Made by a program: the position numbers and the translations under genes
Part shown: positions 18,582 to 23,462 of the stretch, in pieces
Layout of the letters: each line of letters opens with the position of its first letter
Position numbering within the stretch: the first letter of the stretch is position 1
Sequence record: QB031384.1
Reading direction: 5' to 3' (one strand)
DNA from: a phage
DNA: 42,708 bases
Notes under the pieces: model-generated
Databases searched by the model: none
Told to the model about the DNA's origin: nothing
What the model saw: only the letters and a program-made list of their open reading frames with translations

Positions 18582-21032
18582 CTAACAGAAAAAGAATCTG
18601 CTACCCAGTACCTGCTTAAGGTCCAAAGAACCTTTAGCTGGTAACTCCAGCCCTTCTAAGTCTGCCCCACAAGCTACTGCCGCATCAGTAATCTCCTGAA
18701 GTACGTCATGCTCTGTGTACAGACGTAGGAACTGTTCGCGGATAGCAGAATGCATTTCATCTACATCGCAAGCGTGAGTAGCTACCGAGTCGTGGATAGG
18801 CATAATGTCTCCTGAGAATGCAGAGATAGTCATACCTAAGTGAGTAGCGTCTAAGCTGTGCACCCAATTAGGGGAGATGCCTGACTTAGCCTTACGCTTG
18901 TTGTTTACATTGTAGTTACGGTTGTACACCAGCAGGTGTGTCAGGTTCATGCTCTTAACAGAAACCTTAGTCTCTTCTGATTCAGTGTATCGGTTGATAA
19001 CCAGCCCGCCTAACGGAGTCTTCCATTGAAGGTGGTTGGCTGCTGGTACACGATAGCACAGTGACTGTACATATTTCATCGCCTCAGTAGCTGCTGGGTT
19101 AGCGTCCTCTACTGCTGCCTTCATGCGAGTACTCAGATATCCTGCCAGCTTGAACAGGCTGTACTCTTCCGTTCCTTCGTAACCTTCTTCCTGTGCAGAC
19201 TGAAGGATGTACTCGGAGCAAGAGCGCACAGTAGCCGAGTATACGTGTGTCATGCATGGACGTTTAGCCATGCTGCGGGTAATCTCGTTCCCACGCCAGT
19301 AGTTAGCCTGCACTACGAAGTCAGGATTGTCCAGGTCCATGATGACCTTAGCATCAGTACGGCGCTTAACGTCCATGTACATATCTGCTTTCTCTTCGTT
19401 ACCCTCCCAGAACAGGTTAACTAAACGACCACCTACTGAGTCACGCAGTAACGCGGCGAAGTGCTGCTGCCCCGAGTTGGTTGCATCCATAGCCACCGGA
19501 ATGCGTGATTCGTATGTTTCCGGGCTGCCAGAGTCAATAGCAGCAACGAGGTCGATGCAGGCTGCCAGAAAACACCACGGGCTGTCTGCACTCCTGAAAG
19601 CTTCTGCATTAAACGGATTTGATGCGACAAGTCGAATCTGCTCGATATTAGCATCAGTCCAAGCTGCACGCTTTTCGAATAAGGCTTTATCATAACCATA
19701 GCAGGTAGCGACGTGTACCTTGAGCCAAAACAAACCCCGCTCTCCCAGAGGCTTTGCCCGACTGAAGGAGAGCAAAGCTTTCTGCATGTCAGGACCCTGA
19801 GGGTGCAGGCTTGATTTGAAGTACAGGCGGTAGCGCCAGTCAACGCAGGTTGGGAAGTACAGTTCTTTCTCATCCTTAAACTCCTCGCAGAGTTGAACCA
19901 GTGTCACCATGGAACGCAACTTACTTACGCGAGTACGCTCTTGGATGTACCAGTTACGCATATTCATCTTCCAAGTCTGGAAGTCATCCATCTGGCGCTC
20001 GGTGTAATCCTCTTTAGGTACACCGTCCAGATACCACTCAGGTCTAGGGGCTGGGTAGGAACTAGGCATACCTGTCGTTACACCTTCACGACGTGCTTGG
20101 TTAAGCAGATTAAGTACTTCCTTGTTGATAACGTAAGGCACTTCCTGCGCCTTGTTCAGCATATCCTTCAGTCCCTCTGCCTGCTTGAATGCCTCTGCTA
20201 CTTCACGTTTCATTGCACGAGTAATCTGGTGATTATGGTAAGTACCGCGCTTGCAAGTGCTGCTTAGAAGGTATCCACCTGAGAACATGTCTACATGCTT
20301 CTGCGGAGGTACAATCATTGGGGGTTTAATCTCTACGGTATCTGCGTCCAGTACTAAATCGCCTAGTACCTCAGCTAATACTTCAGACGGTGCCAAGTAT
20401 TGTAGCTGGGTTGCGTCAGTGCTCTTATCCCACGTGAACAGGCCTGTTTCCCACACAGGTTGTAGGATTAATTTACCTACTGCTACACACTGAGAAGCGG
20501 ACCAAGGTTCATGCCCGTAGTGCACGTTCTCTGCTGAAGCACGTAAGGTCTTCATAATATGCGACTGACTTGTAGTGTTACGTTCTTTCAAGTACTCAAA
20601 TACACGATTCATATATGCGGGTGCAACTACTTCTAGCTGTATGCTAAGGACCTCGGCTTGAACCTGGCGCCCTAGGTTAGCCAGCAAAGCTTGTGCAGAT
20701 GTACGGCTTCCACCAGACTCTTTAAGGAAGAGGGAGTCAATGCATTTAGTGAGTGCCATTACAGCGAGAACGTCAGTAGGGACCAGACGGATAATGCTGC
20801 GGTACTTACCGCCGACGCCTGCGGTCTTCTGTACCTTCATCTCGTCAATGCCTTGAGCAACAGTATCATAGGCTGCTGCAATCATGCGACTTACCTTAGG
20901 CAGGCTGCTTAAGTTACCTGCTGCCAGTGCCTTCTGCACCAGCTCACGCGACTTGTTCAAGCTGCGCGTACGGTAATCTTTCTCTAACTGTAACTGGCGT
21001 TCTACTTTCTGTTCTAATGTTTCGTGTTGCAT
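18582..21032 (-). CDS. DNA-directed RNA polymerase, single-subunit (T7-like)
   Basis: 816-aa ORF. Motif A DATNSGQQHFAALLRD, motif B RSMAKRPCMTHVYSAT, motif C IHDS. GAGGG SD 4 nt upstream. Sits directly before the structural genes. Confidence 0.9.
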   Translation of the reverse strand: MQHETLEQKVERQLQLEKDYRTRSLNKSRELVQKALAAGNLSSLPKVSRMIAAAYDTVAQGIDEMKVQKTAGVGGKYRSIIRLVPTDVLAVMALTKCIDSLFLKESGGSRTSAQALLANLGRQVQAEVLSIQLEVVAPAYMNRVFEYLKERNTTSQSHIMKTLRASAENVHYGHEPWSASQCVAVGKLILQPVWETGLFTWDKSTDATQLQYLAPSEVLAEVLGDLVLDADTVEIKPPMIVPPQKHVDMFSGGYLLSSTCKRGTYHNHQITRAMKREVAEAFKQAEGLKDMLNKAQEVPYVINKEVLNLLNQARREGVTTGMPSSYPAPRPEWYLDGVPKEDYTERQMDDFQTWKMNMRNWYIQERTRVSKLRSMVTLVQLCEEFKDEKELYFPTCVDWRYRLYFKSSLHPQGPDMQKALLSFSRAKPLGERGLFWLKVHVATCYGYDKALFEKRAAWTDANIEQIRLVASNPFNAEAFRSADSPWCFLAACIDLVAAIDSGSPETYESRIPVAMDATNSGQQHFAALLRDSVGGRLVNLFWEGNEEKADMYMDVKRRTDAKVIMDLDNPDFVVQANYWRGNEITRSMAKRPCMTHVYSATVRSCSEYILQSAQEEGYEGTEEYSLFKLAGYLSTRMKAAVEDANPAATEAMKYVQSLCYRVPAANHLQWKTPLGGLVINRYTESEETKVSVKSMNLTHLLVYNRNYNVNNKRKAKSGISPNWVHSLDATHLGMTISAFSGDIMPIHDSVATHACDVDEMHSAIREQFLRLYTEHDVLQEITDAAVACGADLEGLELPAKGSLDLKQVLGSRFFFC

Positions 21033-21071
21033 TTGATTCCCTCTAGCTAATCGTGGCTGTATGTGAGGTTA

Positions 21072-21191
21072 TTACTTGGACTCACGTCCCTTCCAAAACT
21101 GATAAAGCTCTTCGTAATCCTTAGCTGCTGCTGTGTCTCCCCGCTCAACAGCTTCTGACCACTTCTGCATTGCCCACTCTGACTGTAACAT
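21072..21191 (-). CDS. Small ORF (39 aa), not in ORF track
   Basis: ATG at 21191-21189, in frame after the upstream small ORF's stop; translation MLQSEWAMQKWSEAVERGDTAAAKDYEELYQFWKGRESK. Fills an otherwise empty gap upstream of the RNAP gene. Confidence 0.3.
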   Translation of the reverse strand: MLQSEWAMQKWSEAVERGDTAAAKDYEELYQFWKGRESK

Positions 21192-21194
21192 CAA

Positions 21195-21323
21195 TTACCC
21201 TTTTACAACTTTAATCATGAAGGTTGAAGTAATATCTAAATAGTAAGCTGCCCCATATTGCCATGCACGGTCTTCACTCTCAAACTCACCTACTACTTTA
21301 TGATTTACGATTAGTTTATACAT
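21195..21323 (-). CDS. Small ORF (42 aa), not in ORF track
   Basis: ATG overlaps the stop of the upstream gene as TAATG; translation MYKLIVNHKVVGEFESEDRAWQYGAAYYLDITSTFMIKVVKG. Confidence 0.3.
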   Translation of the reverse strand: MYKLIVNHKVVGEFESEDRAWQYGAAYYLDITSTFMIKVVKG

Positions 21324-21499
21324 TAGTGTAATATCTCCCCTGTAGACTCAGTACCTTCCATGAGGTAGAAGTCATAATCATGTTCTACTACGCCAGCTTG
21401 CTGCCCGGCCCAGAACAGGTCCTGCATGAACTCTTCAGCATAATCTAGGTCAGTAGTATCCAATTCAATAATTGCAATAATCTTATTAGGCTTATGCAT
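21323..21499 (-). CDS. Hypothetical protein (58 aa from internal start; the ORF track extends it to 21646)
   Basis: The 107-aa ORF-track ORF overlaps the upstream gene by 155 nt. The internal ATG at 21499 reduces this to an 8-nt overlap. Confidence 0.35.
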   Translation of the reverse strand: MHKPNKIIAIIELDTTDLDYAEEFMQDLFWAGQQAGVVEHDYDFYLMEGTESTGEILH

Positions 21500-21956
21500 A
21501 GCATTTATCCTTATGTTGTTCGAACAGCTCTTTGTAGAAATCGGCCTTCTTAAGGTCCTTCTCCATCGTAGCGAGCTCTGCTTTCTTACCAGCACGCAAG
21601 CGATATTTGAGCACGTTCCCCATGCAGAAGCCCTTGAACTCTGCATGTGTCATGCTGCGTGCAATAATCTCAATGCTCTCTACGTCAGGGAATACTTGGT
21701 AATGCGACGGCTTACGTACATCATCCGTAGAGCCCTTACTGCGTGCTTCCTCGTGAACCTCTTCTAATAGTTGCGCCTTCTCATCCAAATAACGGAAACC
21801 ACTATAAGTAGTAGCTTCCTTAATATGTGCTGCTGCCCTGTGCGGCGATAACCTAGTACTATTAGTGAGGCAATAAATTCCATCTTTATCGTAGATGTAC
21901 TCAAATACCCCACGTCCCCAAGTGTATTCACGATACATTTCTAAAGGATTACTCAT
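21492..21956 (-). CDS. Hypothetical protein, DUF3310-like
   Basis: 154-aa ORF with SHYQ ... GNVLKYRLRAGKK, recalled as characteristic of the phage DUF3310 family. Confidence 0.5.
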   Translation of the reverse strand: MSNPLEMYREYTWGRGVFEYIYDKDGIYCLTNSTRLSPHRAAAHIKEATTYSGFRYLDEKAQLLEEVHEEARSKGSTDDVRKPSHYQVFPDVESIEIIARSMTHAEFKGFCMGNVLKYRLRAGKKAELATMEKDLKKADFYKELFEQHKDKCYA

Positions 21957-22378: not shown

Positions 22379-22608
22379 AGGTCGAGTTCCTCGCCTTCAT
22401 CTAAATAGTGCTGCTCTGCAATCAAGTCCTCAAGCTGTACCTGCGCCTGCTTATACAATGCAGGGTCTTGCTTGTACAGCTCAGCCAGCTTGTCTTCCAT
22501 CTCTGCGAAGTTCTCTTGGAAGTACAGTTCAATTACTGCTTCTACTGCTGCGTTGAAAGTCGCCATGCCTTGTATTCCTCGTTGTATTGATGCAAGGCTT
22601 CCGCCCAT
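22372..22608 (-). CDS. Hypothetical protein (78 aa, acidic)
   Basis: ORF-track ORF overlapping the exonuclease 3' end. The true start may be the internal Met near 22566. Confidence 0.4.
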   Translation of the reverse strand: MGGSLASIQRGIQGMATFNAAVEAVIELYFQENFAEMEDKLAELYKQDPALYKQAQVQLEDLIAEQHYLDEGEELDLW

Positions 22609-23462
22609 TTCTGGAGGTCGCCCTCCAGTAGGGGGTGTATATAACTGAATGCCGAGTCATCTGGACTGCGACGAAGGAACAAGCATTCCATCTCAGCTAG
22701 GAAGTTCTGGTTAATCTCTGCGTAGGCCGCGACTACTTTGTTAGCCGCTCCCTTCTCCGTACTGCAATCCTTTAGGAACTCATACGCACCAGCTGGGCCT
22801 ATGTTCTTTCCCTTGTACTTAGTAAGTCCAGCAACGTGGTCAGCAGCGTCACCCATTAGCATCTGGGCGAACATGAAAGCTAAACCATGACCGACTACCT
22901 TACCTCTGGATTTATCGTACTCAATCCAGCCGTAAGCATCATCAATCGCATCTACAGTACCTAGCTCAGGGTTCCACTTAGGACCTCGGCAGAGGTTCAT
23001 ATCCTTATCGAAGCTACTTACTAGGCCTCGGTCACCGAAGGCCAAGCTGTCTGCAATAATGCAGTCGTCGGCTTCAGCTTGATAGTCGAAGATAATTTCA
23101 ATTCCTTGCACAGCATACTCGTGAGCATGCGCGATGAGATGAGCCTTAAGGGGTGCTTTGAGCGGTATCTCTTCTCGAGCTGCACGTTGGCCTTGGTACG
23201 GCTTAACGGTAGGCAGAAGGAACCTGCCGCATTTAAAGTTATCAGAAGGAGTAATGTATGCACGTACTTCCTTAGCGTTGCAGTAGAATTTCTCTTCGAG
23301 AACTAATTGATAGAAGCGCCGGACAGCTGTGTCCAAGCGCTTCACTGTACTCGCTGCCTTGTAGACTGCTTGGTCTGCGTCAAGCAGCAGCACAGTATCT
23401 GAAGGAGCAGGTGGCGCTAACTGAGCGCCAAGCTCATCTAAGTTAATGCCACCAATCTTCAT
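22542..23462 (-). CDS. 5'-3' exonuclease (T7 gp6-like, FEN/PIN-type)
   Basis: 306-aa ORF with an Asp-rich N-terminal active-site pattern (LLLDADQAVYKA, EADD). Position downstream of the DNA polymerase matches T7-group synteny. Confidence 0.65.
   Translation of the reverse strand: MKIGGINLDELGAQLAPPAPSDTVLLLDADQAVYKAASTVKRLDTAVRRFYQLVLEEKFYCNAKEVRAYITPSDNFKCGRFLLPTVKPYQGQRAAREEIPLKAPLKAHLIAHAHEYAVQGIEIIFDYQAEADDCIIADSLAFGDRGLVSSFDKDMNLCRGPKWNPELGTVDAIDDAYGWIEYDKSRGKVVGHGLAFMFAQMLMGDAADHVAGLTKYKGKNIGPAGAYEFLKDCSTEKGAANKVVAAYAEINQNFLAEMECLFLRRSPDDSAFSYIHPLLEGDLQKWAEALHQYNEEYKAWRLSTQQ

Follow-up and report, generated by a model that had tools for sequence, protein, structure and literature searches.

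A stretch of 290 bp (21033..21322, minus strand) separates the 58-aa gene p58 from the RNA polymerase (RNAP) gene of this phage, and two small open reading frames, ORF-A and ORF-B, lie in it. The window, i.e. the whole stretch of 42,708 nucleotides that was analysed, is a phage genome of about 42.7 kb with 26 long ORFs on the minus strand and 1 on the plus strand. In GenBank it comes closest to two members of the Slopekvirinae, Autographivirales: Escherichia phage vB_EcoP_P64441, which aligns to 82% of a 12-kb query at 96% identity, and vB_EcoP_PAS7 (78%). The window phage is accordingly classed as an Escherichia podophage of the T7 supergroup, within the Slopekvirinae, with the phiKMV/KP34-like gene order in which the single-subunit RNAP gene comes after the DNA-metabolism genes. 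The features considered below are as follows.

18582..21032, minus strand: RNAP gene, encoding a single-subunit phage RNA polymerase of 816 aa (PF00940).
21033..21071, minus strand: 39-nt leader of the RNAP gene with the Shine-Dalgarno sequence AGAGGG, conserved in alignments and unique in the window.
21072..21191, minus strand: ORF-B, 39 aa (40 aa with the TTG at 21194 as start), assigned to the T7 gene 1.8 / DUF8272 / phrog_1312 family.
21195..21323, minus strand: ORF-A, 42 aa (MYKLIVNHKVVGEFESEDRAWQYGAAYYLDITSTFMIKVVKG), a lineage-restricted accessory gene with a predicted beta-beta-alpha-beta fold.
21323..21499, minus strand: p58, a 58-aa gene conserved in P64441, PAS7 and the related loci L003 and L008-L015.
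21492..21956, minus strand: DUF3310 / T7 gp1.7-like nucleotide kinase gene (PF11753, E 1.1e-21; phrog_2585, E 2.2e-48).

The start of p58 overlaps the end of the kinase gene by 8 nt, and its TAA stop overlaps the ATG of ORF-A at 21323 in the sequence cacTAATGtat. ORF-A has the Shine-Dalgarno sequence GGAG at a longer than optimal distance of 11 nt from its ATG. It ends with a TAA at 21195-21197 and is followed by ORF-B across the junction TAA-TTG-ATG, both being in one frame; the stop of ORF-B is at 21072-21074. The order of the chain is endonuclease VII, DUF3310 nucleotide kinase, p58, ORF-A, ORF-B, the 39-nt leader and the RNAP gene. The 290-bp "gap" holds the last two genes of this overlapping or abutting minus-strand chain, and represents ordinary phage gene packing. 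The preliminary description of this DNA had reported tandem in-frame ORFs of 42 and 39 aa before the RNAP gene, with TAATG coupling to the gene upstream, and both the coordinates and the sequence bear this out. When the gap is shuffled, a lone ORF of at least 39 aa appears on the minus strand in 25% of cases, and a single ORF of such size is unremarkable; two tandem ORFs in the same frame appear in 0.03%.

The same description had offered the alternative of a regulatory spacer. Spelled out, this would be a non-coding stretch whose promoter, terminator or RNA element controls RNAP expression and in which the ORFs are incidental. The frequency of single ORFs in shuffles is in keeping with such a reading, as is the 39-nt leader, which is highly conserved and remains beside the RNAP gene even where a methyltransferase gene has been inserted upstream. 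However, a sequence scan for sigma-70-like promoters and intrinsic terminators inside the gap found none, Rfam returned no family for it at E up to 1, and its RNA folds with the energy of shuffled sequence (z -0.13 over the 290 nt, 0.03 over the leader). A search of the gap for repeats gave none that are meaningful. The whole of ORF-A can moreover be missing while the RNAP leader is retained, and the third-position bias of the substitutions in ORF-A and the protein-level homology of ORF-B, both described below, speak against a spacer as well. We reject the spacer, which we regard as an extremely improbable explanation of the stretch.

ORF-B is the homolog of T7 gene 1.8 in the window phage. 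Its full length matches phrog_1312 (E 8.5e-15; residues 1-39 align with positions 4-42 of the 46-position profile), the same profile that T7 gp1.8 matches with E 6.3e-15; the values for the ORF-B counterparts in PAS7 and L003 together with T7 gp1.8 range from 6e-15 to 3e-17. Homologs were detected by tblastn in 760 of 50,697 GenBank phage records, among them T3 (at the gene 1.8 position), Klebsiella KP34-like Drulisvirus, Pectobacterium Phimunavirus and T1-like Drexlerviridae; hundreds of phages of the Autographivirales and Drexlerviridae have it. The Pfam scan of ORF-B came back empty because PF26839 (DUF8272), which public gene calls record for the ORF-B gene in metagenome contigs L008, L010 and L012 and for P0002, is newer than the Pfam release scanned. 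ORF-B is a new member of a known, uncharacterised family.

Concerning its start, L003 has GTA in place of the TTG of the window, and therefore the ATG at 21191 is the conserved one; the length of 39 aa given in the preliminary description is the better gene model. Comparison of the window with L003 yields a dN/dS of 0.33 for ORF-B in the proposed frame and of at least 0.5 in the other five frames. In an alignment of 11 sequences, including those of T7, KpV71, CB5 and Stevie, residues W6, Y26, W33 and R36 are invariant, and AlphaFold2 predicts from this alignment a two-helix alpha-hairpin with a mean pLDDT of 97. The product would thus be a helical hairpin of about 40 residues, like a single TPR-like repeat. 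Matches to TPR-like or designed helical-repeat proteins were considered as a possible kinship and set aside, since their E-values of 0.013-2 make the likeness descriptive only.

T7 gp1.8 and ORF-B belong to one profile family with E of about 1e-14 for both, have the motif SEW(C/A)...W..A...Y.ELY..WK.R in common, are ~40-48 aa long, and both come from chains of small genes that follow a gp1.7-like nucleotide kinase. They differ in a 19-residue N-terminal extension, present in T7 gp1.8 and missing from ORF-B, in a 7-residue insert that ORF-B carries in the hairpin turn (ERGDTAAAK), and in the Cys after SEW, which is conserved in the gp1.8 family and replaced by Ala in the window lineage. The surroundings differ as well. 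Kinase and gene 1.8 are directly adjacent in T7 and KpV71, whereas p58 and ORF-A intervene in the window; and the gene after gp1.8 is gene 2, the RNAP inhibitor, in T7, whereas it is the RNAP gene itself in the window. KpV71 has the order nucleotide kinase, gp1.8-like gene, RNAP, and PAS7 the order kinase, p58 homolog, gp1.8-like gene, RNAP; therefore, a gp1.8-like gene directly before the RNAP gene is the usual state in Slopekvirinae. The Drexlerviridae phage Stevie has no kinase near its gp1.8-like gene. The C-terminal tail of the 306-aa exonuclease of the window (EGDLQKWAEALHQYNEEYKAWR, 22560-22625, minus strand) weakly resembles the ORF-B motif W..W.EA...Y.ELY..WK.R. This likeness, with an E-value of 0.07 in a tiny database, may be due to chance or to a shared helical-hairpin binding motif.

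The literature on T7 gp1.8 assigns it no function (PMC2680503, PMC9825161, PMC11482910), and a search for DUF8272 or phrog_1312 found no paper that mentions either. The T7 record annotates gene 1.8 as "not essential", and an M1T start-codon mutation in this gene arose in T7 adaptation experiments (PMC2680503). A genome-reduction screen failed to delete T7 gp1.8, from which its authors concluded that the gene is possibly essential, although they left room for other causes (PMC9825161). The importance of ORF-B may for this reason exceed what the term "accessory" implies.

ORF-A is, as judged from the sequence, a real, mobile and lineage-restricted micro-gene, i.e. an ordinary object of the kind known as phage accessory micro-genes. 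Its coding status is supported by purifying selection, codon usage, invariant alignment columns and a confident predicted fold. Between the window and the L003 allele (93% identical), 8 of 12 substitutions fall on third codon positions, and dN/dS is 0.15 in the only frame that is open (Fisher p 3e-4), these values being based on the one divergent allele, L003, and its 12 substitutions. By codon usage, ORF-A has a log-likelihood ratio of +11 bits in its own frame and of -62 and -68 bits in the two others, real genes of the window phage averaging 14.6 ± 7.5 bits per 42 codons; for ORF-A and ORF-B alike, codon usage lies in the real-gene range only in the proposed frame. Over six ORF-A sequences from both of the subgroups described below, 22 alignment columns are invariant. 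AlphaFold2, run on a shallow alignment, predicts a strand at residues 2-6, a strand at 9-14, a helix at 17-30 and a strand at 37-41 with a mean pLDDT of 89.7, so that the product would be a 42-residue beta-beta-alpha-beta miniprotein. Conservation, which the preliminary description had named together with translation as a test of the ORFs, was found for both: ORF-B belongs to phrog_1312, and ORF-A is under purifying selection and has independent homologs.

Two other kinships of ORF-A were considered and rejected. A phmmer search gave full-sequence E-values down to 2.6e-20 for long FG-GAP_2 (PF14312) repeat proteins (P0003-P0026), which are sums of 5-13 bits per repeat over up to 18 repeats. 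Shuffled ORF-A finds nothing among these proteins, so the resemblance depends on residue order. However, the Pfam FG-GAP_2 model does not match ORF-A, single-repeat matches are insignificant, and the loop and strand of FG-GAP correspond to a helix in the AlphaFold2 model. Short queries against repeat proteins, as a general caution, can sum weak repeat matches to strong E-values. The likeness to the protein G B1 domain (E 0.13) goes no further than a beta-hairpin with a helix after it.

Relative to P64441 and PAS7, both of which lack ORF-A, this ORF is seen in alignments to be an exact insertion of 129 bp, placed after the stop of p58 and before the start of ORF-B. Where ORF-A is missing, p58 and ORF-B are coupled straight to each other by a direct overlap, TGATG in PAS7 and TTGA in P64441. 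The insertion at precisely this start/stop junction would keep the coupling on both sides, through TAATG upstream and TAA-TTG-ATG downstream, and was probably gained by illegitimate or homologous recombination at the junction, in a region that is a hot spot of gene gain and loss. ORF-A resembles the so-called moron-type accessory micro-genes of phages in being a precise one-ORF insertion between two coupled genes, in having a lower GC content than its surroundings, in its patchy presence among close relatives and in the differing positions of its homologs in differing phages. Unlike such genes, it brings along neither a promoter nor a terminator, and so depends for its expression on translational coupling and the host operon.

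ORF-A has no match in PHROGs, Pfam or NCBIfam, none in 50,697 GenBank phage records at E up to 10, no homolog in plasmids or complete E. coli genomes, and no relatives in IMG/VR, where the single "hit" proved to be a QYGAAYY motif inside a 244-aa ORF and was dismissed. In a collection of 15 billion proteins, an identical ORF-A protein occurs on 11 Logan metagenome contigs, and all of those that reach far enough carry p58, ORF-A, ORF-B and RNAP, with or without a methyltransferase gene before the latter. Variants at 93% and 90% identity are P0001 and P0031, and a second subgroup of 44 aa (one variant has 57 aa), 50-59% identical to ORF-A, comprises P0015, P0028, P0029 and P0032-P0034. The 90%-identity cluster of P0015 also lists P0027, an unrelated glycine-rich protein of 521 aa, which is an evident clustering artefact. 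Intact homologs (42-44 aa, one of 57 aa) are found in at least five further clusters and in two other genomic contexts: in the PAS7-like podophage L005 the homolog lies in the early region, after a phrog_3955 gene, and in the Drexlerviridae-like fragment L007 the order is DUF7180, phrog_3955, ORF-A-like, phrog_7411, DUF8272. This small family of 42-44 aa is known from metagenome contigs alone, and Pfam, PHROGs and NCBIfam do not include it.

It might be argued from this lack of any described family that ORF-A is a decaying or meaningless insertion remnant, open by chance, and that ORF-B is the only gene. ORF-A is also AT-rich (35% GC against 48% for the genome), and the same hot spot in L003 holds what is left of a methyltransferase gene that has truly decayed. 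The low dN/dS, the intact homologs in other clusters and contexts, the invariant columns, a confident fold obtained from a shallow alignment and the preserved coupling of start and stop argue against decay, and we consider the remnant clearly improbable. Low GC as proof of a foreign origin of ORF-A was likewise discarded, because its dip of 0.35-0.37 is matched by a value of 0.34 at 21420-21539, which makes it weak evidence. The 100% identity of ORF-A DNA across 8 contigs was not taken for a recent sweep, since it is part of the right-hand side of the mosaic, a highly similar block that includes the RNAP gene.

The two ORFs, being adjacent and in frame with TAA-TTG alone between them, could also be thought of as a working pair, or as one 82-residue read-through product. 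A certain association is seen in L007, an unrelated fragment, where the ORF-A homolog lies ~370 bp upstream of the DUF8272 gene. However, ORF-B occurs without ORF-A in hundreds of phages, L005 has an ORF-A homolog with no DUF8272 gene within ~8 kb downstream, and the TAA stop is retained in all nine related loci examined. The in-frame layout itself stems from a single insertion event and counts as one observation with a one-in-three chance. A pair or fusion is thus very improbable, and we treat ORF-A and ORF-B as separate genes.

The preliminary description had further proposed that products at this position could modulate the change-over to transcription by the phage RNAP. For the position there is a precedent. 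Gp2-like inhibitors of host RNAP are encoded directly upstream of the RNAP gene in phiKMV-like phages of Pseudomonas, according to a passage in PMC5537680 that cites Klimuk et al. 2013, and the gp25.1 gene of LUZ19 sits likewise directly upstream of its RNAP gene. T7 Gp2 has the elements beta1-beta2-alpha-beta3, and its near-invariant Arg56 and Arg58 in strand beta3 contact E1158 and E1188 of the beta' jaw (PMC3541766). ORF-A, or else ORF-B, might on these grounds be a minimal Gp2-type inhibitor that binds the beta' jaw and shuts off host transcription once phage RNAP has been made. ORF-A is small like T7 Gp2 and the phiKMV-like inhibitors, is predicted to have the same strand-strand-helix-strand order, and is encoded, like the latter in their type of gene order, directly before the RNAP gene; nor is there a recognisable Gp2 homolog anywhere in the window, which leaves host shut-off without an assigned gene in this phage.

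Membership of ORF-A in the Gp2 family, suggested by this predicted fold and by the T7 gene order 1.7, 1.8, 2, was nevertheless rejected on the basis of profiles, hhalign, motif, charge and structure searches. Neither ORF-A nor ORF-B matches PF16857 or phrog_1307 at E up to 10, whereas the positive control, T7 Gp2, scores 4e-28 and 1e-31 in these searches. With hhalign, ORF-A reaches a probability of 2% against T7 Gp2 and of 0.1% against LUZ19 gp25.1, which amounts to no detectable sequence or profile similarity, and three structure searches did not retrieve a Gp2 link for it. The Arg-x-Arg of beta3 is absent from ORF-A, whose beta3 reads FMIKVVKG (SIKVVR in homologs): its basic residues are spaced i, i+3 instead of i, i+2, and an Arg pair is lacking. 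ORF-A is neutral (net charge 0), not acidic like T7 Gp2 (-5), and is missing from close relatives of the window phage. As for ORF-B, gene 1.8 coexists with gene 2 in T7, and ORF-B is the homolog of the former. A Gp2-type inhibitor thus has little probability here, and the proposed role in the transcription switch, for all the precedent of its position, is not supported by the sequence and structure comparisons. What stands of the preliminary interpretation is that the gap holds two real micro-genes with apparent translational coupling; the spacer does not stand, and the switch role is an unsupported possibility.

We speculate, as an unlikely idea, that ORF-A founds an undescribed family of 42-44-residue beta-beta-alpha-beta miniproteins which move between enterobacterial podophages and siphophages. 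Its members might serve as minimal host-takeover or anti-defence factors, e.g. as inhibitors of RNAP or another host protein that are analogous to Gp2 and unrelated to it, and might be timed with the transcription switch by their position beside the RNAP gene.

The explanation that we favour, and hold with good confidence as a whole, is that the stretch belongs to a real gene chain in which ORF-B is the gp1.8 counterpart and ORF-A an inserted accessory micro-gene, both being translationally coupled and both encoding small binding proteins. The comparisons above establish ORF-A and ORF-B, at the sequence level, as conserved coding sequences with the anatomy described. Their translation would depend largely on coupling, on the same transcript as that of the DNA-metabolism genes. 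Their size and predicted folds suggest that the products are most likely non-essential accessory proteins that bind a host or phage partner, and not enzymes: they are too small for the latter, and hence presumably binders. ORF-A at least seems dispensable, since P64441 and PAS7 lack it.

These results leave the current understanding of phage transcription control unchanged and will not surprise the specialist. Their use lies partly in the correction of annotations, several related records and gene callers missing one or both ORFs; ORF-B is unannotated in P64441 and uncalled in L003, L009 and L011. In addition, the T7 gene 1.8 family emerges as a conserved neighbour of the RNAP gene in Slopekvirinae, and ORF-A, as a rare and mobile 42-residue family with a confident predicted fold, is a cheap candidate for expression, toxicity and pull-down screens for host-takeover factors.

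The gene upstream of ORF-A, p58, is extremely acidic, with 13 D/E against 2 K/R and a net charge of -11, and has no match in Pfam, PHROGs, NCBIfam or the PDB. Among GenBank phages it is confined to 11 records, those of the phiKDA1, PAS7 and P64441 clade. As an acidic mini-protein encoded next to the RNAP gene, it is a better a-priori candidate for a mimic of a host protein or of DNA than ORF-A or ORF-B. The DUF3310 / gp1.7-like gene before it encodes 154 aa in the window and in PAS7-like phages, but P64441 and the closest contigs have only 73 or 95 aa of it; its N-terminal half is thus variable or replaced.

An indel hot spot lies between the ORF-B stop and the RNAP leader (21071/21072 in the window; 1801-2481 in L001, about 10250-10390 in L003 and 3260-3943 in L009). 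It contains a DNA methyltransferase gene of 226/227 aa in P64441, L009, L011 and L014, an internally deleted, decayed remnant of this gene in L003, and nothing in the window, PAS7, L008, L010 and L012; the presence of ORF-A and that of the methyltransferase vary independently. A mosaic breakpoint between the window and L008-L014 is seen at ~21323, the boundary of p58 and ORF-A. Related contigs are 89-97% identical to the window on its left (exonuclease to p58) and 96-100% identical on its right (ORF-A, ORF-B and RNAP). Finally, the records OR846985, OR848265, OR850875 and OR844702 give matches to this region of the window phage that are identical in identity, bit score and E-value, and are named as Listeria phage LM 4-11-1 and 4-14-1, Salmonella phage S.Kent 1-2-1 and Escherichia phage ECO104 4-5-2, which suggests that one phage has been deposited under several host names.
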